From assembly GCA_028715345.1 (NCBI GenBank), contig JAQUSB010000005.1, forward strand, positions 10,042 through 74,041: a DNA stretch of 64,000 nucleotides, in the 5' to 3' direction. Positions 5,557-33,375 of the stretch are shown in pieces. Within the stretch, counting starts at the first letter, position 1; each line of letters begins with the position of its first letter. A program made the translations under genes and the position numbers. This stretch comes from Candidatus Omnitrophota bacterium. GTDB taxonomy: Bacteria; Omnitrophota; Gorgyraeia; 2-01-FULL-45-10. The notes under the pieces are model-generated. The model was given only the letters and a program-made list of their open reading frames with translations. It ran no database searches and was not told the origin of the DNA.

Positions 5557-6084
5557 ATGAAACGTTATAAGTTCTTATCGATGATCATGGTCCTCGGATC
5601 CCTGGCAGGCTGCTGCGCCCATTCCGATAGCGGCACCTGCGAAAAAAAGAGCGTGGTCGCGAAGGTGAACGGCTACGAGCTGACCGAGAGCGATTTCCTG
5701 AACGAGGTAACGCTTATTTCGCCGAAGATCTACCAGTCCGCGGATAAAGAAAAAGCGAAAGAGCGCGCGCTGAACGAGCTCATAACCAAAAAAGTGCTCC
5801 TGCAGGAAGCCCAGAGATCTAATTTCGATAAAGACCGGAAATTCATGAGGGAGATCGAAAGGTATTGGGAGCAGGCCCTGCTTAAACTTTTGATGAAGAA
5901 GAAGATCGACGAATTCTCCAAGGCCATCTCCCCGGAGGTGCCTTTCGAAACACGGCAGCAGATATTGCGCGCGGAGATAAGTAAGTGGATAGCGGATGTC
6001 CGAAACGCCGCGAAAATAAAGATATATAAGGAAAACCTTGATAAAGTAGAGATCAAAGAGGGAGGCCTCGATGGAAGAGAATAA
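5557..6084 (+). CDS. SurA N-terminal-domain-like periplasmic chaperone lipoprotein
   Basis: Lipobox 'LAGC'. 'VVAKVNGYELTESDFLNEV...LNELITKKVLLQEA' resembles the SurA N-terminal domain. Start chosen at the internal Met. Confidence 0.45.
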   Translation: MKRYKFLSMIMVLGSLAGCCAHSDSGTCEKKSVVAKVNGYELTESDFLNEVTLISPKIYQSADKEKAKERALNELITKKVLLQEAQRSNFDKDRKFMREIERYWEQALLKLLMKKKIDEFSKAISPEVPFETRQQILRAEISKWIADVRNAAKIKIYKENLDKVEIKEGGLDGRE

Positions 6085-6619
6085 GAACAGAAGAAGGAAT
6101 TATTACATCAAGAAAGATTTCCAGAGAAATTTTATACTGAAGTTCTGTCTTCTCGTCCTTCTGGGCTCGGCCGTATCGGGAAGCATCATATACCTGATGT
6201 CGAAAGCCACCGTTACGACTTCATTCGAAAATCTCAGGCTTGTGATAAAGAGCACCGCCGACTACATCCTGCCGGCCGTATTATTGAGCGGGTTTGTCGT
6301 GATAATGATCACCGGAATAGCGGCCATATTCATAACGCTTTTCACCTCGCATAAGATCGCGGGCCCTCTTTACAGGATAGAGAAGGATATAAATGAGATA
6401 ACGTCCGGGAACCTGAGGCAGGAATTCAACTTAAGGCAGGGGGACGAGATCAGGCCCATAGCCGAAAGCTTAAACGAGATGGCCCATTTCCTGCGTGATG
6501 AAATAGGCGGGCTGAAGAAGGCGTTGGCCGACCTTGAGTCTGCCGGCGGCAGCCTTCCTCCCGAGGTGCGCGAAAAGATAAAAACGCTGAAAACAAAACT
6601 GGATAAGTTCAGAACGTAA
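6071..6619 (+). CDS. membrane protein with HAMP domain
   Basis: Two TM helices followed by a HAMP-like 'AGPLYRIEKDINEITSGNLRQEFNLRQGDEIRPIAESLNEM'. Confidence 0.5.
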   Translation: MEENKNRRRNYYIKKDFQRNFILKFCLLVLLGSAVSGSIIYLMSKATVTTSFENLRLVIKSTADYILPAVLLSGFVVIMITGIAAIFITLFTSHKIAGPLYRIEKDINEITSGNLRQEFNLRQGDEIRPIAESLNEMAHFLRDEIGGLKKALADLESAGGSLPPEVREKIKTLKTKLDKFRT

Positions 6620-6620
6620 T

Positions 6621-7211
6621 ATGATGAGAATTTTCGCGCCCGTATTAATAATAGCTTTTACGGTCATAAGCCCTTTTTCGATATTCGCGGCGGATGATGC
6701 GCCTATGCCGGCAGGAGGGGTTGAGCCGGAATGGGTTAAGCTTGAGACGGGGTACCTGACCGTCTATTATCTGCCGGGCGCCGACGTCGAGGCTATGGAA
6801 CGCCGCCTGAAAAGCCGCGCCACGTATTTCGACAGCGATATACCGGGCGACGCAGCCCCGTCGGAAGAAAAGATGCGCTATCAGCTCGACGCCTTATTCC
6901 GCCACGCGCAGGCGATCCTCGACATGAGGCCGGCCAATATACATGTGAATATAAGGATATTCAGGACCAGGGAGGCGCTCGAGGCCGAATACGCGAAGAT
7001 ATTTCCCGCAGGCACGCCTACGGAAGAAGACCTTAAGGCTTTTTACGTAAATAAATATAATACGATATATGTTTCCGAGGAAGACATTTCCGATTCCGTC
7101 ATAGCACATGAGATGGGCCACGCCATAGTGGACCACTATTTTGCGGTAGTCCCTCCCGAAAAGATAAGGGAGCTTCTGGCTTCCTATGTTGACTTGCATC
7201 TTGCGGAATGA
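6621..7211 (+). CDS. secreted protein with HExxH (zincin-like) motif
   Basis: Signal peptide 'MMRIFAPVLIIAFTVISPFSIFAADD' and motif 'HEMGHAIVDH'. Confidence 0.45.
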   Translation: MMRIFAPVLIIAFTVISPFSIFAADDAPMPAGGVEPEWVKLETGYLTVYYLPGADVEAMERRLKSRATYFDSDIPGDAAPSEEKMRYQLDALFRHAQAILDMRPANIHVNIRIFRTREALEAEYAKIFPAGTPTEEDLKAFYVNKYNTIYVSEEDISDSVIAHEMGHAIVDHYFAVVPPEKIRELLASYVDLHLAE

Positions 7212-7229
7212 TGCGAAAATTGCTATAAT
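7201..7229 (+). promoter_or_regulatory. extended -10 promoter (TTGCGG-N17-TGCTATAAT) for tRNA-Ala
   Basis: TGnTATAAT ends 14 nt upstream of the tRNA 5' end. Confidence 0.4.
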
Positions 7230-7243
7230 AAACGGCATTTCCC

Positions 7244-7317
7244 GGGGCTGTAGTGAAGAGGGATCACGACACAATGGCATTGTGTAATCACGAGTTCGAT
7301 TCTCGTCAGCTCCACCA
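7244..7317 (+). tRNA. tRNA-Ala (anticodon GGC), CCA encoded
   Basis: Cloverleaf folded by hand. Acceptor GGGGCUG/CAGCUCC has a G3:U70 pair, the Ala identity element. D stem is GUGA/UCAC. Anticodon stem ACACA/UGUGU carries loop AUGGCAU. T arm is ACGAG-UUCGAUU-CUCGU. Discriminator is A, followed by CCA. Confidence 0.8.
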
Positions 7318-7430
7318 ATTCCAAAAACGACTTCGCCGAGGTGGCGGAACTGGCATACGCGTCGGTCTCAAAAACCGATTTCCTCACGGATATGAGGGTT
7401 CAACTCCCTCCCTCGGCACCATCGGATAAT

Positions 7431-8279
7431 ATGCGGATCGGTCTGCACGTCTCCATAGCCGGACATATTTACGAATCGCTCGGCAGGGCGAAGGCGCTCG
7501 GCTGTAACGCGATGCAGATATTCAGCCGTAATCCCAGAGGCTGGCAGGTTACGGCACTCGATGAGGCCGACGTAAAAGAATTCAGGCGCCTTAAAGAGAA
7601 GTACGATATAAACCCGGTAGTTATCCATATACCGTATATAATAAATCTCGCGACGCCCGACGACAATTTATACGAAAGATCGATCGGCGCTTACATAGAA
7701 GACCTGAAACGCGCGGACACCCTCGGCGCAGAATATTTCGTAACGCACCTGGGCAGCCATGTGGGCAGCGGCGAGGATAACGGCATCAGGAGGTTCTCGG
7801 ACGCGCTCAGGCAGATAAGTAAAAAAGCGGACCCGAAGACGATGATACTTTTGGAAAATACCGCGGGTTCGGGCGACGGCATCGGCTATAGGTTCGAGCA
7901 TCTTAAACGTATCATAGAGGCCCAGCCCGATCCGGCGAAGATCGGCGTCTGTCTCGATACGGCGCACACTTTCGAAGCGGGTTATGATGTTAAAGATAAG
8001 GCGGGCCTTGAAAAGACGCTGAAAGATTTCGATAAATTGCTGGGGCTGGACAGGATAAAGGTAGTACATTTTAACGACAGCCTTTCACAAATAGATTCGC
8101 GCGTCGACAGGCACCAGCATATAGGTAAAGGCGAAATAGGCGGCGCGGGATTGAAGCGGATAATAAACCACCCCGGATTAAAGAACGCGGCCTTCATAAT
8201 GGAAACGCCGAAGGATACAGATAAAGACGATAAGAGAAATATGGCCATAGCTAAAAAAATGGCCGGAATAAAAAAGTAA
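7431..8279 (+). CDS. nfo: endonuclease IV (AP endonuclease family 2)
   Basis: 'HIPYIINLA', 'THLGSH', 'ILLENTAGSG', 'DTAHTFEAGYD' and 'HFNDS' match Nfo metal-binding motifs. Start at 'MRIGLHVS', downstream of the tRNA. Confidence 0.8.
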   Translation: MRIGLHVSIAGHIYESLGRAKALGCNAMQIFSRNPRGWQVTALDEADVKEFRRLKEKYDINPVVIHIPYIINLATPDDNLYERSIGAYIEDLKRADTLGAEYFVTHLGSHVGSGEDNGIRRFSDALRQISKKADPKTMILLENTAGSGDGIGYRFEHLKRIIEAQPDPAKIGVCLDTAHTFEAGYDVKDKAGLEKTLKDFDKLLGLDRIKVVHFNDSLSQIDSRVDRHQHIGKGEIGGAGLKRIINHPGLKNAAFIMETPKDTDKDDKRNMAIAKKMAGIKK

Positions 8280-21085: not shown

Positions 21086-21108
21086 GTTGTAATTTGATAA
21101 AGGAAAAT

Positions 21109-22219
21109 ATGATCGCGGAGCTTAAGGAAACAATAAATATATTAGAGGAGAAATTCAGGAACCTCAGAGGTTATCTTTGAGGTAGGCAAAAAGTGCGAAC
21201 ACATTGCCTCTCTGGAAGATGAGTCGTCCAAGGACGGATTCTGGAATGACGAAACCCGCTCTAAAGAATTATTCAAAAAATTAAAAGCGCTTAAATCGGA
21301 TATAGAGCCCTTCATAAAACTCGAAAGCGAATTTAAAGACCTTAAGGACGTGATATCCATTGCCGGGCCGGAAGACGCATCATCCTTAGAACATTTCAAA
21401 AATGACCTCGCCGGCATAATTAAGCGGCTCGACGCGCTGGAATTCAGGACGCTCCTGGACGATGAGGCCGATAGGTCCAACGCCATACTGAGCGTAAACG
21501 CGGGCGCGGGAGGGACGGAGTCGTGCGATTGGGCTGCGATGCTTTTGCGGATGTATATAAAGTGGGCGGAGTCGAAAGGTTTTAAGATCGATATCATCGA
21601 CCAGCTCTCGGGTGAAGAGGCGGGCATAAAGAACGCGACGATGCTTATAAAAGGCGAATACGCCTACGGCTTTATGAAATCCGAGACCGGAGTCCATCGT
21701 CTCGTCAGGATCTCGCCGTTCGATTCGAATAAGAGGCGCCACACTTCTTTCGCATCCATAGATATTATACCCGAAGTATCCGACGACATACAGCTCGACA
21801 TAAAAGAAGCGGACCTGAAGATAGATACGTATAGGGCGGGCGGCAAAGGCGGACAACATGTCAATAAGACCGATTCCGCCGTGCGCATTACGCATATCCC
21901 GACCGGCATCGTGGTCCAGTGCCAGAACGAGCGCTCGCAGCTTAAGAATAGATCGACGGCGATGAAGATATTGAAGGCGAAACTGTACGAGCGCGAGCGG
22001 ATGAAGAAAATGAAGGAGCAGGAGAGCGCTTACGACTCGAAAAAAGAGATAGCGTGGGGAAGCCAGATACGTTCTTACGTCCTGCACCCTTATTCGATGG
22101 TAAAAGATCACAGGACCGATTTTGAGACGGGCAAGGCGCAGGCTGTGCTAGAGGGTGAGATAGACGATTTCATCGAAGCGTATCTTAAGTGGGCAAAGGA
22201 GCAAAGGACCGGCAAATAA
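21109..22219 (+). CDS. prfB: peptide chain release factor 2, programmed +1 frameshift (21109..21177 frame 0, then 21179..22219)
   Basis: A 23-codon frame-0 ORF '[23 protein letters not shown]' ends at CUU UGA G. It is preceded by an SD-like AGAGGU. The +1 frame continues into the RF2 body with 'SPF' and '[16 protein letters not shown]'. Confidence 0.85.
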
Positions 22220-27162: not shown

Positions 27163-27186
27163 CGGCTTTCATCCCACAAATTACGA

Positions 27187-27225
27187 TTTATACACAAAGT
27201 AGCGCACCCTTAAGGGTGCCCCAAG
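27187..27225. repeat. REP-like element copy 2 (decayed right arm)
   Basis: TTATACACAAAG tail plus TAGCGCACCCTTAAGGGTGCC. The right arm is degenerate. Confidence 0.55.
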
Positions 27226-27441
27226 CTTTGCTCTTGCCTGAGCTGGGCGGCCCTATCAATAGGACGTTGTGGACGAAATACGACGATTCCCTTCGAGATA
27301 GAGGCGGTTTTAAGATGAAATATAACCAGATATTCGGCGCTTTTCGTCGGATAATTGAAGTGCGAAGAGTTAATATTTCACGTGAAATAAATGGGCGAAG
27401 GGATAAAGGTCGAGGTAAAAATGACAGTAAAATAAACCTTG

Positions 27442-27472
27442 ACATCGAAGCTTGCCAAATGCTATAAAGTAA
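27442..27472 (+). promoter_or_regulatory. sigma70-like promoter TTGACA-N18-TATAAA for island operon
   Basis: 'ttgacatcgaagcttgccaaatgctataaag' lies about 100 nt upstream of the first island gene. Confidence 0.35.
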
Positions 27473-27570
27473 TGTAAGCTTTAAAAGAAAACATATGTTA
27501 AAACCCGCCAAAGTAGTGCATAGCCAAAAAATCCGCGGCTATTTTTATGTTATGGAGAGGAGGCGATAAG

Positions 27571-27747
27571 ATGACACGTCCGCAAACCAATAAAGAAATA
27601 CAAGAGCAGTTTATTAAAAAAGCCCAGAGTGCCGGTGTCACAGTCTATAAGAACAATATTCACACGGCTAAACCATTATCGCAAATCTGCGGATCTATCA
27701 AGACAAGGTATCCTTCCTGCACCCGGGATCTTATCTGCGGACGATGA
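27571..27747 (+). CDS. small protein (58 aa), translationally coupled upstream partner of PIN protein
   Basis: Strong SD 'GGAGAGGAGG' 8 nt upstream. Its stop overlaps the PIN start (ATGA). No recognisable fold. Confidence 0.35.
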   Translation: MTRPQTNKEIQEQFIKKAQSAGVTVYKNNIHTAKPLSQICGSIKTRYPSCTRDLICGR

Positions 27748-28430
27748 GCCCAGATAGTTCATCCTATAAGAATTTTTCTGATAGGCCTATCCCACCCATT
27801 CTATATGTTGATACTAGTTTTATTGTAGATGCCCTAGTTGATGGGCAGCTTTTCCATAAGGAATCTATGGGGTTTATCGACGAGATGGCTAAAGATGTCG
27901 ATAAGCAGCCTATTCTCATATTCTCTGATATCCTGAAGATTGAATTGAAATGCGCTGTTACTTCAATATGCATAAGAAACGACTACGGTAAAAATATTAG
28001 TATAAATAGAGTGCTTAAGCTGCATCCGGATTTAATACAAAAATATTACCCCACTGTGGAGTTGGCAGAAAAACAGTTTATGGATGTCTTGCAAAGATTT
28101 AAGAACTGGACATCCATGCCTATTGATGAAGAAATAATAAATAGAGCTGGATCGGTTATGCCAAAATACCGACTTGGGAGTTCAGACGCAATACATGTTG
28201 CTACGATGGAAAAGTGGGATATAAAAGATATATTGACATACGATTGGGGCATCGAGGATCTTCCGATGTATAAAGGGGATTGCAGTGTTTGGACCTGTAA
28301 TGGATGGCGAAGGTATCTTAGCCGATCAAAACGGCGTAGTAAGCGTGATGAGGAATTAAAGAGACTAATTGAAGAAGCCAAAGAAATACTTAAGCTAGGA
28401 TCCAGAGACGAGAATAGGTCGTTAGCGTAA
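27744..28430 (+). CDS. PIN-domain nuclease with C-terminal basic/coiled extension
   Basis: N-terminal 'ILYVDTSFIVDAL' (first Asp) and C-terminal 'SSDAIHVATM' (PIN fourth acidic motif). Confidence 0.55.
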   Translation: MSPDSSSYKNFSDRPIPPILYVDTSFIVDALVDGQLFHKESMGFIDEMAKDVDKQPILIFSDILKIELKCAVTSICIRNDYGKNISINRVLKLHPDLIQKYYPTVELAEKQFMDVLQRFKNWTSMPIDEEIINRAGSVMPKYRLGSSDAIHVATMEKWDIKDILTYDWGIEDLPMYKGDCSVWTCNGWRRYLSRSKRRSKRDEELKRLIEEAKEILKLGSRDENRSLA

Positions 28431-28463
28431 TAGTGTTACGATAAAATCAGAGGATAGATCATC

Positions 28464-29270
28464 ATGACGATTTGTATAGGTGCATTGTGTGATCAAGGTA
28501 AAAATTGCATTGTGGCGGCAGATAGGGAGATCACCGCCCCCGGTCTTAGCTTAGAATTTGATCATGAAAAGAAAATAGAACCGTTAACCGATTCTTGCGT
28601 AGTAATGTCGGCGGGAGATTCGCTTCTTGCTGCTGAAGTTATAGAAAAAACACGCTCCATCGTTACTGGCAAGTCCGGCGCTACTATTCGACAGATCGCT
28701 GAAGCGTTGAAGAATGTTTATTTTCAGGTTCATACTGAAAGGGCAGAAAACGTTATTCTACGGCCGCGCGGCCTTACTTTGGCAGAGTATAAACAAAATG
28801 GCGCGCAGCAAATTCCTTTACAGGCATATATGAACATAGACAATCTTTTCTGGACCTTCGGTATTAATGTAGTTGAGTTCATCATAGCTGGCGTTGATTC
28901 CACAGGAGCGCATCTTTTTAGAATATATTATTCTGGTATAGCTGGTGGAAACTGGTTGGAATGGTGCGATAGGATTGGCTTTAGGGCGATAGGTTCCGGT
29001 GCGTTGCATTCAGCAATATTACTTTCTCTCGACGGTCAGCATAAAAATACGGCGCTTGAGCAAACGATATACAATATTTATTCTGCAAAAAAGAGCGCTG
29101 AAGTAGCACCTGGAGTCGGCCCATCTACCGACATAGCTGTTATAACTTCTTCCAAGGTAGATTTTCTTTCTACGACGGCGATCGACAAGCTTTCAACCGT
29201 TAGATGCGAAGCTCTGAAAAATAGACTAGTAAATTCTGAAAAAATAAAAGGAATTTATGAATCAAGATAA
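28464..29270 (+). CDS. proteasome beta-subunit/HslV-like N-terminal nucleophile (Ntn) hydrolase
   Basis: Thr immediately after Met ('MTICIGAL'), 'CIVAADREIT' (Asp17 equivalent), a Lys about 33 and 'AIGSGALHSA' (the GSG motif of the T1 peptidase family). Confidence 0.55.
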   Translation: MTICIGALCDQGKNCIVAADREITAPGLSLEFDHEKKIEPLTDSCVVMSAGDSLLAAEVIEKTRSIVTGKSGATIRQIAEALKNVYFQVHTERAENVILRPRGLTLAEYKQNGAQQIPLQAYMNIDNLFWTFGINVVEFIIAGVDSTGAHLFRIYYSGIAGGNWLEWCDRIGFRAIGSGALHSAILLSLDGQHKNTALEQTIYNIYSAKKSAEVAPGVGPSTDIAVITSSKVDFLSTTAIDKLSTVRCEALKNRLVNSEKIKGIYESR

Positions 29271-29463
29271 TGCGATTAATATTGCTAATGTAATAACAAA
29301 CACAAGATATTGTCAGAATGATGATTATTATAATCTCTTTTTAAGGGCCACAGAGATCGACCTGGAAAGCATAAAGGTTGCCCTGCGAACGGGGACGATA
29401 ATTGATCTTATTAGCCCTTCGCTTAAAGAAATACTTAACGAGAAAGCGAATCAGGACTTCTAA
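29257..29463 (+). CDS. hypothetical small protein (68 aa)
   Basis: ORF overlaps the preceding gene by 14 nt in an operonic arrangement. No motifs recognised. Confidence 0.3.
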   Translation: MNQDNAINIANVITNTRYCQNDDYYNLFLRATEIDLESIKVALRTGTIIDLISPSLKEILNEKANQDF

Positions 29464-29520
29464 TTTATTGCAGGCCTTTGTTTTATTGACATCCCATCCC
29501 CATAGGTTTACAATGGCCAC

Positions 29521-30234
29521 ATGGACGGTACCAAGGCTCTCATAGACCTCGAAAACCCGAAAAGCATTGCAGAGCTACTTCGCGAACCTACCATAAAGAT
29601 ATCCGAATTCCTTACCGGGCTGATCATTTCAGATAAGAACGACTATAAATTATCTGCTGGCCACCTGGTCCAGGCGGCGATAAAGTGTAACCTTTTACAG
29701 CAATTTGGCCGCGAGATAAAGCACTACCGCGAAAAAGGCAAGATCAAAGAGGACTTTTTCTCAACCGATAAGCAGCGCGCTACATTGCGAGAGTTGCTCG
29801 AGTTCATAGATAAAGAAGCACCGGATGAGGATCGTTTCAAGGCTATGAAGTCGATATTTTTTGCAACAATTTCAAAAGATTCCACTGGCCCTGATGAAAT
29901 ACTCGGATACGAGCTCATGCAGATATGTAAAAAATTAACAAGCAATGACGTAGTTCTTTTAAAAACGGCTTATAGTGTTTACATTGGTGGAAGTTCTGCC
30001 CCCATAGAGGAAACTACAAGGCCGCGCGAAGCGACGGCATGGTTCAATATCATTGCAGAAAAAATAGGCCATAAGTTACCGGCGTTAGCCGAATTAAGTG
30101 AGCAAAACTTAATGGATCTTAAGTTAATAGGAAGGCGGCGCTATCCCGACGGGAGCGGGCTTTATAATCAAGAATCGTTTCGTTTGACAGATTTAGGAAT
30201 TAAGCTATGCGAATTTATTACTGAATATCAATAA
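29521..30234 (+). CDS. hypothetical protein (237 aa)
   Basis: Uninterrupted ORF with AT-rich codon usage matching the island. No motifs recognised. Confidence 0.45.
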   Translation: MDGTKALIDLENPKSIAELLREPTIKISEFLTGLIISDKNDYKLSAGHLVQAAIKCNLLQQFGREIKHYREKGKIKEDFFSTDKQRATLRELLEFIDKEAPDEDRFKAMKSIFFATISKDSTGPDEILGYELMQICKKLTSNDVVLLKTAYSVYIGGSSAPIEETTRPREATAWFNIIAEKIGHKLPALAELSEQNLMDLKLIGRRRYPDGSGLYNQESFRLTDLGIKLCEFITEYQ

Positions 30235-30315
30235 AGTGAACGTCATAAAGGGTATGGTATGAGTTCTGACAAATAATATAGGTAAACTGAGCAACTCCAG
30301 AGAGGGGTTGCTTTT

Positions 30316-31095
30316 TTGTTGGAGAACTTAATGGCAGATTGCAAATCTTGCGGTTACTGGATTCCTGACGGTGCTAAGAAGTGCGCGCATTGCGGCGCCG
30401 ATATTAGTCTTACGAAGCCACAAATAGCGTGGAAATGGGTATCGTTTATCACGAATCTCGGTGCGATTGCTGCAAGCTTTGCGACATGCGTGATGGCTAT
30501 TGTCATGCTTGCTCAGAGTTCATCCATGGAAAAGCAGTCGATTTCGCTCGAGGAACAGACACAAGCCTTAAAGGTCCAGGCCGCCTCTATTAAAGCTCAA
30601 ACGAAGATCCTCCAAAAGAATTTTGAACTCGAGTATATTCCGGTTATAAAAATAGGAGCGGTAGCTTTTAATTACATACCATATAGCGACCGTCCGGACC
30701 ATCGCCTGGTGATGATGTATTTTATAGTACCTATAGAAAATAAACACGGCTTCGCGGAAAATATAAAAATAATTAAGAAAGAGATCGTTCTATTGAGAGG
30801 TACATTTAACCTTCAAAACGCGGAATGTATGCGCGGTCCTTTAGTAGAACGCCCCTTTGAATTGTCGTCTGGGCAAATCAAATACGACACAATAAAGATC
30901 GATGAAGAAGCGCCCAATTTTGAAAAGGTTATGGAAGGGAAAGAAGCCTTTATTCTCGAATATAAAATAGAATATGAAGCATTGCCGGGAGTAGTTAAGG
31001 GTAGCTATATTTATAACTATGTTATAAAATTCAGTGGAGGGCGGCAAGAGGTTATTACTGAAAATACTATACCTCCAAAGGAGACAGCACAATGA
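30316..31095 (+). CDS. Zn-ribbon membrane protein with coiled-coil
   Basis: N-terminal 'CKSCGYWIPDGAKKCAHCG' (CxxC...CxxC) and a TM helix 'VSFITNLGAIAASFATCVMAIVML'. Coiled-coil 'EEQTQALKVQAASIKAQTKILQK'. Confidence 0.45.
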   Translation: MLENLMADCKSCGYWIPDGAKKCAHCGADISLTKPQIAWKWVSFITNLGAIAASFATCVMAIVMLAQSSSMEKQSISLEEQTQALKVQAASIKAQTKILQKNFELEYIPVIKIGAVAFNYIPYSDRPDHRLVMMYFIVPIENKHGFAENIKIIKKEIVLLRGTFNLQNAECMRGPLVERPFELSSGQIKYDTIKIDEEAPNFEKVMEGKEAFILEYKIEYEALPGVVKGSYIYNYVIKFSGGRQEVITENTIPPKETAQ

Positions 31096-31140
31096 AAAAG
31101 ATGATATCTGTATTAATGATTTGCCTATTCATGTCCGGCC

Positions 31141-31216
31141 CGTATCTTTTTAAGTACCATAAGGCATTTCTTGCGAGGTGCTTCTTTTTAAGCCATGTTA
31201 TCGAAAGATAAGGAGT
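31141..31216. repeat. 76-bp duplicate of an internal yraN segment (about 93 % identity to 33519..33594)
   Basis: Aligned by eye with 5 mismatches. The 33519 copy is in frame within yraN and encodes 'GPPYLSITWLKKKHLVRNALWYLKRY'. The 31141 copy is intergenic. Confidence 0.75.
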
Positions 31217-31230
31217 TAGGATAGATTAGT

Positions 31231-31270
31231 AGTAGGGCACCTTTAAAGGTGCCCTACTTTGTGGATAACT
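31231..31270 (+). repeat. REP-like element copy 3 (left flank of RAYT)
   Basis: AGTAGGGCACCTTTAAAGGTGCCCTACTTTGTGGATAACT. Confidence 0.8.
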
Positions 31271-31273
31271 TTA

Positions 31274-31778
31274 CTAATCTATCGGGTCTATCCCTAAAGC
31301 ATTCCTATTGTTGCCGAAGTAATGATCATAACTGGAATATGGATAATCTCCAGGTGATACGGCAATGTTTTTGCGGATAGGATTATTATGTATATATTCT
31401 ATTTTTTGCATTAACATTCTCGTATCTCTTATGCCCTCATCGTAAAAACGTTTTTGCCATACCTGTCCGCTGATATTGCTTAACTTATTATACTTTCTTG
31501 CAAAACTTCCTTTTTATCATCCGCATTATGTACGATAAGTCATATTTTCCGACAGGGCGTAGTATGAGATGCAAATGGTCGGGCATTATGCAGTAAGCAT
31601 ATATTTTATAGTCTAAAATCAGTTTGTAATATTCGATCGTTATCAAAAGAATTCGACACATTTTATCATCTTTAAATATAGGGTAGCGTTCTTGTGCTAT
31701 AGTTGTCACGAAATACGAATACCCTGCTTCGAAATGACGTTTAATATTTCCCATGAAAAGCCTCCGAGTTATCCACAA
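31274..31778 (-). pseudogene. REP-associated tyrosine transposase (RAYT / IS200-like Y1 HUH), frameshifted
   Basis: N-terminal frame (31488..31778) has 'YSYFVTT' and the HuH motif 'PDHLHLIL'. A different frame (31274..about 31490) encodes 'GQVWQKRFYDEGIRD...EYIHNNPIRK...YPYSSY' with the catalytic Tyr region. Confidence 0.7.
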
Positions 31779-31808
31779 TGTAGGTCACCCTTAAGGGTGA
31801 CCTACATA
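31768..31808 (-). repeat. REP-like element copy 4 (right flank of RAYT, inverted)
   Basis: GTTATCCACAATGTAGGTCACCCTTAAGGGTGACCTACAT. Confidence 0.8.
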
Positions 31809-31845
31809 TAATCAAAACAATATACATAACGATAGTTGTATATTC

Positions 31846-33375
31846 TTACCCCCACAAATTCCTATCCAGGCTCCTGTATGAGATCGCTTCCGATATGTGA
31901 TGAGCTTCGATGATCTCTTTTCCGTCGAGATCAGCGATGGTGCGGGCTACTTTCAGTATCTTGTCGTAAGCTCTCGCCGAGATGCCGAGCTCGAGGATGG
32001 CGAGCTTCAGTAATTCCTCGCTCTCTTTATCGAGAACGCAGTATTTTTCCAGTTCTTTCGATTCCAGGTGGGCATTGAAATAAACGCGGTCATTTTTATA
32101 CCGCGCTTTCTGGACTTCGCGGGCTGAGTCTACGCGTTTGCGTATCTCTTCCGAAGGCTCGCCCCGGCGCTTGTCGGTGAGGTTTTCCAGTTTCAGCCGC
32201 GGGACCTCGAGGTGCATGTCTATCCTGTCGAGAAGCGGGCCGGATATCTTCGATAGATAATTCTGTATCTGGAAAGGGGAGCAGTGGCATTCGCGTTTCG
32301 GATCGGTAAAATAACCGCACGGGCAGGGGTTCATCGCGGCTACGAGCATAAATTTAGACGGGTAAGTAAGCCGATTTGAAACCCTGGAAATGGTAATAGA
32401 ACCTTCTTCGAGTGGTTGGCGCATTACTTCGAGGACGTTACGTTTAAACTCGGGCAGCTCGTCTAAGAACAGCACGCCGTTATGGGCGAGCGATATCTCG
32501 CCCGGCATCGGGTTCGGCCCCCCGCCGACCAATGCAGCGTCGGAAATAGTATGGTGAGGCGAGCGGAACGGCCTTGTCAGCATTAAACCTTTATTCGGCG
32601 GTAAGAGCCCGGCGACGCTCTGTATCTTGGACGTCTCTAAACTTTCCTCGAGCGTCATATCGGAAAGTATGGTAGGCAGGCGCTTGGCAAGCATACTCTT
32701 GCCCGAGCCGGGCGGGCCTATCAATAAAACATTATGGCCGCCCGCGGCGGCGACTTCGAGGCCGCGCTTCACGTGCTCCTGGCCCTTCACATCGTTAAAG
32801 TCGACCCTGTATCTTGCGGCCCGCTTCATGACGGTCTCCGTGCTGCATTTTTGCGGGGCCTGGATCCTGCCGTTCAGGAAATCTATCACGTCTTTCAGCG
32901 ATTCCATAGGGTAGACGCCGATATCGTCCACGACGGCCGCTTCTTTGGAATTTACTTTAGGAAGGATGAATTTTTTCCTGCCCGTCTTTTTCAGGGCCAT
33001 CGCTATCGGCAAAGCGCCTTTAATGGGCTTCAGTTTACCGTCGAGCGAAAGTTCGCCGCAGAAGACGAAATCGGATAAAAGGGAAGAGTCGGCCACGCCT
33101 TCCGTAGCGAGAATGGATAGCGCTATAGGCAGGTCGAACGACGAGCCCTCTTTCTTTATGTCGGCGGGCGCCAAGTTCACGGTGATCTTTTTCGCCGGGA
33201 ACGAATAGCCGGAATTCTTTATGGCCGATTTTATCCTGTCGCGCGATTCCTTTACGGCGGTATCCGGTAATCCCACTATATTTATGCCGGGCAGGCCTCC
33301 TCCGGTATCTGTCTCTACGATCACTTCATGAGCTTCGACGCCTATGACGCAGCTCGAAAATATCTTCGCGATCAC
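31846..33375 (-). CDS. comM: YifB/ComM family Mg-chelatase-like AAA+ ATPase
   Basis: N-terminal Lon-like S5 fold, Walker A 'GPPGSGKS', and a C-terminal ChlI-like domain. 509 aa. Confidence 0.8.
   Translation of the reverse strand: MIAKIFSSCVIGVEAHEVIVETDTGGGLPGINIVGLPDTAVKESRDRIKSAIKNSGYSFPAKKITVNLAPADIKKEGSSFDLPIALSILATEGVADSSLLSDFVFCGELSLDGKLKPIKGALPIAMALKKTGRKKFILPKVNSKEAAVVDDIGVYPMESLKDVIDFLNGRIQAPQKCSTETVMKRAARYRVDFNDVKGQEHVKRGLEVAAAGGHNVLLIGPPGSGKSMLAKRLPTILSDMTLEESLETSKIQSVAGLLPPNKGLMLTRPFRSPHHTISDAALVGGGPNPMPGEISLAHNGVLFLDELPEFKRNVLEVMRQPLEEGSITISRVSNRLTYPSKFMLVAAMNPCPCGYFTDPKRECHCSPFQIQNYLSKISGPLLDRIDMHLEVPRLKLENLTDKRRGEPSEEIRKRVDSAREVQKARYKNDRVYFNAHLESKELEKYCVLDKESEELLKLAILELGISARAYDKILKVARTIADLDGKEIIEAHHISEAISYRSLDRNLWG

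Follow-up and report, generated by a model that had tools for sequence, protein, structure and literature searches.

A predicted proteasome-beta-like threonine hydrolase with a small overlapping companion gene in a low-GC island of an Omnitrophota genome

A gene for a predicted proteasome-like N-terminal-threonine hydrolase lies in a 64,000-nucleotide stretch of DNA from a Candidatus Omnitrophota bacterium (GenBank assembly GCA_028715345.1, contig JAQUSB010000005.1, positions 10,042 to 74,041), which we call the window. The open reading frame (ORF) occupies positions 28464 to 29270 of the forward strand, exactly as given in a preliminary description of the window, encodes 268 amino acids, begins MTICIGALCDQGK / MTICIGALCDQGKNCIVAADREIT, and has a Shine-Dalgarno-like GAGGA (28450-28454, +) 9 nucleotides before its ATG. 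A small ORF of 68 amino acids, here called S1 and predicted to be helical (29257-29463, +), starts within its 3' end. We consider it likely that the larger ORF encodes a proteasome-beta-like N-terminal-threonine hydrolase of a large, horizontally mobile and uncharacterised family, most probably PHI (proteasome homologue with helical insertion; PMC8665760). An identical protein is recorded as a hypothetical protein of a Candidatus Omnitrophica metagenome-assembled genome (MAG); the locus-tag prefix of that protein, PHI58_, is a coincidence and has no relation to the PHI family.

Taken as a single sequence, the protease gives weak evidence of proteasome homology: the Pfam family PF00227 (Proteasome) matches it with E=1.7e-4 and 21.8 bits, against a gathering cut-off of 22.4 bits, and its best match in the Protein Data Bank (PDB) is human beta7 (E=3e-4). 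Searches of NCBIfam, PHROGs and PADLOC with the protein gave nothing useful. A first homologue search yielded 118 homologues, and a profile made from 32 homologues gives a full-length match to the 20S beta subunit of M. jannaschii (E=2.2e-13) and a match to a 20S alpha subunit (E=1.4e-10); the best 60 PDB matches of this profile are all 20S subunits. In hhalign comparisons, the probability was 91% for T. acidophilum beta versus 36% for E. coli HslV. An AlphaFold2 model based on the homologue alignment has a pLDDT of 90.8 and a pTM of 0.87, and all 50 matches listed by Foldseek when it was compared with the PDB are 20S subunits, with beta subunits on top (E ~1e-12) and TM-scores, normalised to the target, of 0.6 to 0.79. 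Sequence and model together place the protease with the 20S alpha and beta subunits, and clearly further from HslV.

The profile alignment with 20S beta pairs T2 of the protease with Thr1, D20 with Asp17 and K37 with Lys33, and G51 and S178 correspond to Gly47 and Ser129. D20 lies in the sequence AADREIT, and AIGSGALHSA contains G177-S178-G179. The preliminary description had pointed to Thr2, to both of these motifs and to a lysine near position 33, and had raised the possibility that the triad would be lost in a proper alignment. All of these features are present, align with 20S beta and are near-invariant among 434 aligned family members, in which Thr1 is kept in 417 of 418 sequences, Asp17 in 422 of 423, Lys33 in all 430 and Gly47 in 427 of 431. 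The serine position of the GSG motif holds S in 349 relatives and T in 28, and K209, E213 and G217-V218-G219 are further invariants of the family. The protein is thus predicted to be a proteasome-beta-type (T1) N-terminal nucleophile (Ntn) hydrolase with an intact Thr1/Asp17/Lys33 triad.

An exact Met-Thr start is found in 346 of 417 relatives. Homologues that seem to be extended at the N terminus have V or L directly before the threonine, and are therefore explained by miscalled GTG or TTG starts; we rejected them as N-terminal fusions. This pattern points to a family that is made without a propeptide, as the preliminary description had supposed for the window protein. Methionine aminopeptidase removes the methionine that precedes a threonine, and would expose the nucleophile.

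It is very improbable that the motif resemblance is superficial, and that the protein is an inactive scaffold resembling alpha subunits or a member of another Ntn hydrolase family of the DmpA, asparaginase or penicillin acylase type. The Pfam score just under the gathering threshold, the profile match to alpha subunits and the lack of clear conservation at the positions of Asp166 and Ser169 would suit such a reading. However, the near-invariance of nucleophile and triad, together with the prevalence of Met-Thr starts, speaks against it; in alpha subunits Thr1 is missing and the N terminus is extended. No other Ntn family appears among the 50 Foldseek matches listed or the top 60 profile matches, so the assignment to the T1 type in the preliminary description stands, with 20S subunits and not DmpA or asparaginase as the nearest structures. 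As far as sequence and fold can tell, both possibilities are ruled out.

The modelled structure locates helix H1 at residues 53-67 and a long H2 at residues 75-102, followed by extra helices at 106-116 and 119-131 and then by a strand at 137-145, which gives a helical insertion at approximately residues 68-131. In the profile alignment, residues 68-120 of the protease replace beta residues 64-82, an excess of ~34 residues. Helices H3 (180-189) and H4 (198-214) are connected by an 8-residue loop with no insertion between them. The S3-S4 region (residues 21-44) is short in the model, but is predicted with low confidence. Two C-terminal helices, at 237-254 and 258-266, are of the H5 type.

Fuchs, Alva and Lupas described 22 further proteasome-like subfamilies of prokaryotes and phages in 2021, all of which lack a propeptide, a co-occurring AAA+ protein and an informative gene context (PMC8665760). 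PHI, one of the groups nearest to the 20S clusters, is marked by a long insertion that follows H1/H2 and in some cases by a coiled-coil H5. It was described from 53 sequences of the nr database, with no phage members, and is known from Proteobacteria, Firmicutes, the PVC group, other bacteria and three archaeal groupings (PMC8665760). A search of 1.84 billion cluster representatives at 50% identity gave 5,802 matches to the family of the window protein at E<=1e-3, 4,185 at E<=1e-10 and 1,764 at E<=1e-30, the weaker tiers of which probably include canonical subunits. With 22 subfamilies catalogued (PMC8665760) and 1,764 matches at the strictest threshold, the statement in the preliminary description that bacterial proteasome homologues outside HslV are rare is outdated.

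Nearly all family members come from uncultured lineages, and their phyletic spread is patchy. The 36 loci from genomes belong to Omnitrophota, Patescibacteria, Acidobacteriota, Chloroflexota and Spirochaetia among bacteria, and to Methanoregulaceae, ANME-1, Bathyarchaeia, Thermoplasmata, Micrarchaeota and Woesearchaeota among archaea. Searches of cultured phages and plasmids by tblastn with the window protein, a homologue from a phage contig and a homologue from Reyranellaceae gave no match, and in the later literature we found no paper characterising any of the 22 subfamilies. The protease thus joins a kind of protein that is already catalogued and uncharacterised, and it is the contextual leads that are new.

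This context was examined in 130 related loci drawn from genomes, metagenomes and viral contigs; 102 of them are non-redundant (individual loci are given as L numbers). The ATG of S1 lies 14 nucleotides inside the 3' end of the protease gene, with AAAGGAA 4 nucleotides upstream of it, and S1 is probably translationally coupled to the protease gene. S1 occupies the same position in eight non-redundant loci (the window, L012, L052, L001, L049, L051, L055 and L059), in which its called ATG lies at -3 to -13 nucleotides from the protease stop; the proteases of the other seven share 52-78% identity with that of the window. Between the window and L012, the S1 sequences differ at 17, 14 and 42 sites in codon positions 1, 2 and 3, respectively, with 23 synonymous codon changes. 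This excess of third-position and synonymous changes identifies S1 as a genuine coding gene. S1 is 55% identical to its counterpart in L012 versus 78% for the protease, and 28% versus 56% in L001, so S1 evolves much faster than its neighbour. In the S1-bearing clade, the protease and the overlapping S1 gene thus take the form of a predicted two-gene cassette. The protease had been called stand-alone in the preliminary description, which is correct in that it has no ATPase partner; S1, which overlaps its 3' end and is conserved with it, means that the protease probably does not stand alone in the wider sense.

Small ORFs at this position are not confined to the S1 clade. A same-strand ORF of 45-120 amino acids that starts between -70 and +30 nucleotides of the protease stop is found in 54 of 90 loci (60%), versus 81 of 350 control genes from the same loci (23%), which corresponds to an odds ratio of 5 (p=8e-11). 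At least seven sequence families, in addition to singletons, are represented among these downstream ORFs. A second family overlaps the 3' end of the protease gene in 10 loci (L027, L069, L073, L082, L084-L086 and L089-L091) and has a conserved helix, L.EFIKADWEAK..AF...SPFP, followed by a variable proline-rich tail. Members of a third family, of ~50 amino acids, are basic, carry LK.RIIKCKRQYITKAMEFRR and occupy the same slot in 7 loci. We rejected a single superfamily of small ORFs, whose common ancestry is unproven. An AlphaFold2 prediction for the single S1 sequence was uninformative (pLDDT 52).

Relatives of the protease are found as passengers of mobile elements. In L005, a complete IS1-type element of 2.28 kb (5641-7920) is inserted in mlaC, which it splits, and is bounded by perfect 24-nucleotide terminal inverted repeats (5641-5664 and 7897-7920) and a target duplication of ~8 bp. 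Beside its IS1-type transposase it carries the protease and a 75-amino-acid ORF of sequence GGLKGGKARA...RW. Small ORFs of this KGG type are situated just upstream of the protease in L005, L030, L033 and L068, and elsewhere nearby in L046 and L084; in L033, inverted repeats of 17 nucleotides enclose a unit of KGG-type ORF, protease and IS1-type transposase. An IS type unrelated to that of L005 is represented in L011 (7853-10789), where 13-nucleotide inverted repeats and an 8-bp target duplication, GCGTGTGG, surround the protease and a SWIM/DDE_Tnp_1 transposase. This element recurs in L044, and a SWIM-DDE transposase lies directly downstream of the protease in 9 loci; counting both types, an IS1-like or SWIM-DDE transposase is directly downstream in 17 of the 102 loci.

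Two IMG/VR contigs with relatives of the protease encode a portal protein (3e-155) and a tape-measure protein, and close homologues adjoin integrase, serine recombinase and Rep genes, or restriction-modification and zeta-toxin genes. A homologue with 55% identity resides in an archaeal island of the defence type (L050, 569-7705), together with an OLD-family nuclease, an MjaV-type restriction-modification pair, a CARF/Card1-like protein and a VapBC pair. After this homologue comes a zinc-ribbon membrane protein broadly similar in type to one encoded in the window at 30316-31095. These contexts identify accessory islands, IS elements and tailed-phage contigs as carriers of family members.

The window copy itself lies in a low-GC accessory island of 4.6 kb that is delimited by GC content and edge repeats (27184-31813) and holds the protease cassette. 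GC content is 0.36-0.44 across ~27.1-31.9 kb versus ~0.47-0.59 in the flanks, in agreement with the mobile island proposed in the preliminary description, and the genes on either side are housekeeping genes (secA, lnt, a response regulator and yifB/comM). Horizontal acquisition of the island is supported by these sequence features. A REP-like palindrome (GTAGCGCACCCTTAAGGGTGCCC; core GCACCCTTAAGGGTGC) is present at 27184-27221, 31217-31254, 31765-31802 and 2497-2512, four copies in the window where 0.08 would be expected by chance, and one copy marks each edge of the island. At the right edge is the gene of an IS200/RAYT-type Y1 transposase (31296-31778, -; Pfam Y1_Tnp, E=4.8e-9 for the N-terminal part), flanked by inverted arms of 47 nucleotides (31224-31270 and 31767-31813); two inverted palindromes around a Y1-transposase gene are the classic RAYT/REP arrangement. 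The transposase gene is interrupted by TAATAA after an N-terminal part of 96 codons that includes the HUH motif PDHLHL, and its C-terminal part (WQKRFYDEG...IEYIHNNPIRKN) can be read past the stops. It is probably a pseudogene or an assembly error.

Four further ORFs of the island are on the forward strand. Upstream of the protease by 33 nucleotides is the gene for a PIN-domain protein of 228 amino acids (27744-28430, +; Pfam PIN, E=1.7e-10), whose start is overlapped by 4 nucleotides by an ORF of 66 amino acids (27547-27747, +). These two resemble a VapBC arrangement, but with a PIN protein of unusual length that ends in a basic tail. Downstream of S1, an ORF of 237 amino acids (29521-30234, +) shows a weak resemblance to Abi_alpha (Pfam E=0.037, far below the cut-off) and has no counterpart in the related loci. 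A near-consensus sigma-70-type promoter (TTGACA-17-TACAAT, 29486-29514) lies directly before it and a terminator-like hairpin with a 10-bp stem (30289-30313) follows it; its own promoter-like site and hairpin suggest that this ORF is a transcription unit separate from the protease cassette. The last, of 259 amino acids (30316-31095, +), encodes a zinc-ribbon and transmembrane protein (Pfam Zn_Ribbon_1, E=7e-5). Zinc-ribbon membrane proteins of similar type are near homologues in L050 and L039, but with only three loci, and a common type of protein, we did not accept it as a recurrent neighbour.

The protease might belong to a system that spans the whole island, comprising the antitoxin-like ORF, the PIN protein, the small ORF, the Abi_alpha-like ORF and the zinc-ribbon membrane protein, in which it would activate or regulate the PIN nuclease. 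The genes are packed tightly on one strand (33 nucleotides between PIN and protease, 57 between the small ORF and the next gene) within a single low-GC island, and the weak Abi_alpha match and a different PIN/VapBC pair 1.5 kb from the L050 homologue would fit such a system, although the VapC-type PIN protein of that pair is unrelated. Synteny speaks against it. S1 is the only island gene with a counterpart beside any related protease, and the closest relative, in L012 (78% identity), has methyltransferases and a zeta-toxin-like ATPase in place of the island genes. The 237-amino-acid gene has its own strong promoter-like site, and PADLOC detected no system. We regard a whole-island system as improbable, and as largely refuted by the missing synteny. 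The PIN nuclease is likewise rejected as a partner: no conserved PIN neighbour exists beside other family members, so the relevance that the preliminary description gave to this neighbour is not borne out.

For ~17 kb on each side, the island is flanked by housekeeping genes that include comEC, lptE, holA, murJ, uvrC, prfB, secA and lnt, and also a response regulator, yraN, spoVG, lysS, lolCDE, dnaG and rpoD. The prfB gene (21094-22219, +) has a programmed +1 frameshift, of the classic kind: an ORF of 28 codons closes with LRGYL-stop, and the rest of the coding sequence is read in the +1 frame. Within this distance the only AAA+ gene is a ubiquitous housekeeping gene of the yifB/comM type, resembling Mg-chelatase (31846-33375, -); it lies outside the island and is absent from the related loci. 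No HslU- or ClpX-type gene was found within ~17 kb on either side or among the neighbours in related loci, and no second proteasome-like gene or PAN, Mpa or ARC ATPase was found near the protease. The preliminary description had reported neither hslU nor any AAA+ gene nearby; the first part holds, and the second needs qualifying by the yifB/comM-type gene.

Clustering of neighbours in the 102 non-redundant loci gave a heterogeneous picture, with no AAA+ family, no alpha-subunit gene and no universal partner. In a Pfam scan of 148 neighbour proteins, 109 families were matched and the 25 commonest were inspected; the families of the Anbu operon (ATP-grasp, alpha-E and transglutaminase-like) are absent from these 25, from the island and from its flanks. 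PADLOC gave no convincing match on the island genes, its only hit being DruE (E=0.011) for the zinc-ribbon ORF, and on the 148 neighbours gave scattered matches of 1-3 proteins each (among them methyltransferases, a dGTPase and MzaA). With matches absent or scattered, a defined defence system is not supported.

The sequence and fold suggest how the protein could work. Methionine aminopeptidase would expose Thr1, whose hydroxyl, assisted by Lys33 and Asp17, would attack peptide bonds, so that the enzyme might cleave peptides or proteins independently of ATP, by analogy with other T1 peptidases. The insertion and C-terminal helix may control oligomerisation and access of substrates. The small co-translated protein would be a cognate regulator (an inhibitor or adaptor) or a substrate, and the pair would form a self-contained module that mobile elements carry between hosts.

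It is possible, and we take it seriously, that the protease is a self-compartmentalising, ATP-independent ring protease of the BPH, Anbu or uncapped-20S type. Its subunits would then form stacked rings with the insertion as a cap or gate, unfolded proteins or peptides would be degraded without specificity, and the small ORF would serve in assembly or gating, or play no part. The closest relatives, 20S alpha and beta subunits, form rings, the ring-contact helices H1-H4 are all present in the model, and a C-terminal H5-type helix is of the kind that stabilises double rings in Anbu (PMC8665760). Moreover, an ANME-1-like archaeal clade has the protease beside dnaJ, dnaK and hsp20, in line with a proposal that homologues lacking a cap operate together with housekeeping chaperones. 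However, the PHI-type insertion, as modelled, would clash with ring assembly (PMC8665760), and carriage by IS elements and phages with a patchy distribution is unusual for a protease of general proteostasis. The repeated capture of the gene by two IS families and its presence on tailed-phage contigs argue for a benefit to mobile elements and not for general proteostasis. The chaperone clade comprises L018-L025, from ANME-1, Methanosarcinales and Bathyarchaeia MAGs, in which the protease adjoins dnaJ/dnaK or hsp20 and also a secreted SNase plus lamin-tail-domain protein, a context unlike the mobile contexts elsewhere.

The protein could also be a sequence-specific protease or transpeptidase of the connectase kind, monomeric or of low oligomeric order, whose dedicated target is the small protein, to be processed, activated or inactivated, or a single host or phage protein, and which forms with the small ORF a mobile two-gene module of addiction, defence or counter-defence. 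This is conceivable, if somewhat doubtful. The small ORF is positionally conserved, probably coupled in translation and fast-evolving, several sequence families share one slot, and relatives are carried by IS elements, phages and defence or accessory islands. Connectase demonstrates that the fold can evolve such specificity (PMC7980362), and the insertion may block ring formation. On the other hand, the defining features of connectase are not present in the protease, PADLOC found no convincing match on the window genes, defence genes are only sporadic neighbours, and half of the close homologues have no small ORF. A bolder form of the idea is a mobile two-gene module, in which the small-ORF families are interchangeable cognate partners (inhibitor or antitoxin, adaptor, or substrate) carried for conflict, that is, addiction, anti-phage defence or counter-defence. 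We put this forward tentatively and think it rather unlikely; if true, both the architecture and the biological role would be new for an enzyme with the proteasome fold.

Several points weigh against the interpretation that we prefer, of a T1 hydrolase of the PHI family coupled to a small partner. The counterparts of Asp166 and Ser169 are A215 and V218 in the profile alignment, and V214 and G217 in the hhalign alignment; the nearby family-invariant E213, K209 and G217-V218-G219 could substitute for them. We infer the catalytic activity and substrates of family members from sequence. Membership in PHI, which we hold to be the better bet, was judged by the features described for the group, whose representative is WP_012956871.1 (KEGG OC.1181028). 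S1 is missing in approximately half of the closest clade (L048, L013, L014, L050, L003, L056 and others), and the enrichment of small ORFs was calculated from related, non-independent loci with crude ORF calls. Finally, hhalign comparisons among the small-ORF families S1, S2 and S3 gave probabilities <1%, with no detectable homology, and a common function of these families is therefore a conjecture.

Of the 22 subfamilies catalogued in 2021, none has a known substrate, partner or quaternary structure, and the present family is very large and resides almost wholly in uncultured lineages. The small protein, whose translation is probably coupled to that of the protease, is a candidate for its partner or substrate. 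If the two are a functional pair, they would provide the first functional entry into the orphan proteasome relatives. The coupled small ORF, the carriage of relatives by IS elements and phages and the location of the window copy in a low-GC island appear to be new.

Among named proteasome relatives, the 20S beta subunit (archaeal PsmB, eukaryotic beta2/PSMB7) is the best match of the protease in both sequence and structure, with TM-scores, normalised to the target, of 0.7-0.79 and with Thr1, Asp17, Lys33, Gly47 and Ser129 in common. Identity is only ~17-20%, however, and the protease lacks a propeptide, has the helical insertion of ~34 residues, is without an alpha-subunit gene or a PAN, Mpa or ARC ATPase, does not clearly keep Asp166 and Ser169, and has a mobile and patchy distribution. 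HslV (ClpQ), a T1 threonine peptidase of bacteria, shares the fold, and its mature form likewise begins with threonine. It is compact, however, with ~175 amino acids, a very short pore loop and no H5, and is encoded with and dependent on hslU, which is not found near the protease. The protease, as the preliminary description noted, is longer (268 amino acids), and has the insertion and the C-terminal helix.

Anbu and BPH are also orphan proteasome-like proteins without a propeptide or unfoldase partner, and Anbu shares the long C-terminal helix. Anbu is encoded in a conserved operon together with ATP-grasp, alpha-E and transglutaminase-like genes, whereas BPH is compact (~200 amino acids) and its pore loop is acidic. 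Neither protein ranks among the best 60 PDB matches of the profile or is reported to be carried by IS elements or phages. Connectase, the archaeal DUF2121 protein ligase, has the proteasome fold and an N-terminal threonine and works independently of an ATPase. H1/H2 are missing from connectase, and two helices are inserted between its S3 and S4, whereas the protease has H1 (53-67) and H2 (75-102), carries its insertion after H2, and has no Pfam DUF2121 match.

The family described here differs from PHI as published in being far larger than 53 sequences, in including phage contigs and IS passengers, and in its frequent small overlapping downstream ORF, which is not in the published account (PMC8665760). 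The protease resembles PHI in its proteasome-like fold with Thr1, Asp17 and Lys33 and no propeptide, in the absence of an AAA+ partner, and in its occurrence in bacteria (including the PVC group and "other bacteria") and archaea. Like PHI, it has no insertion between H3 and H4, unlike PMI-2 to PMI-6, and none between S3 and S4, unlike connectase, PMI-5 and PMI-6. It further shares with PHI a tight similarity to 20S alpha and beta, a C-terminal H5-type helix, and a long helical insertion after H1/H2, at the site of the pore loop.

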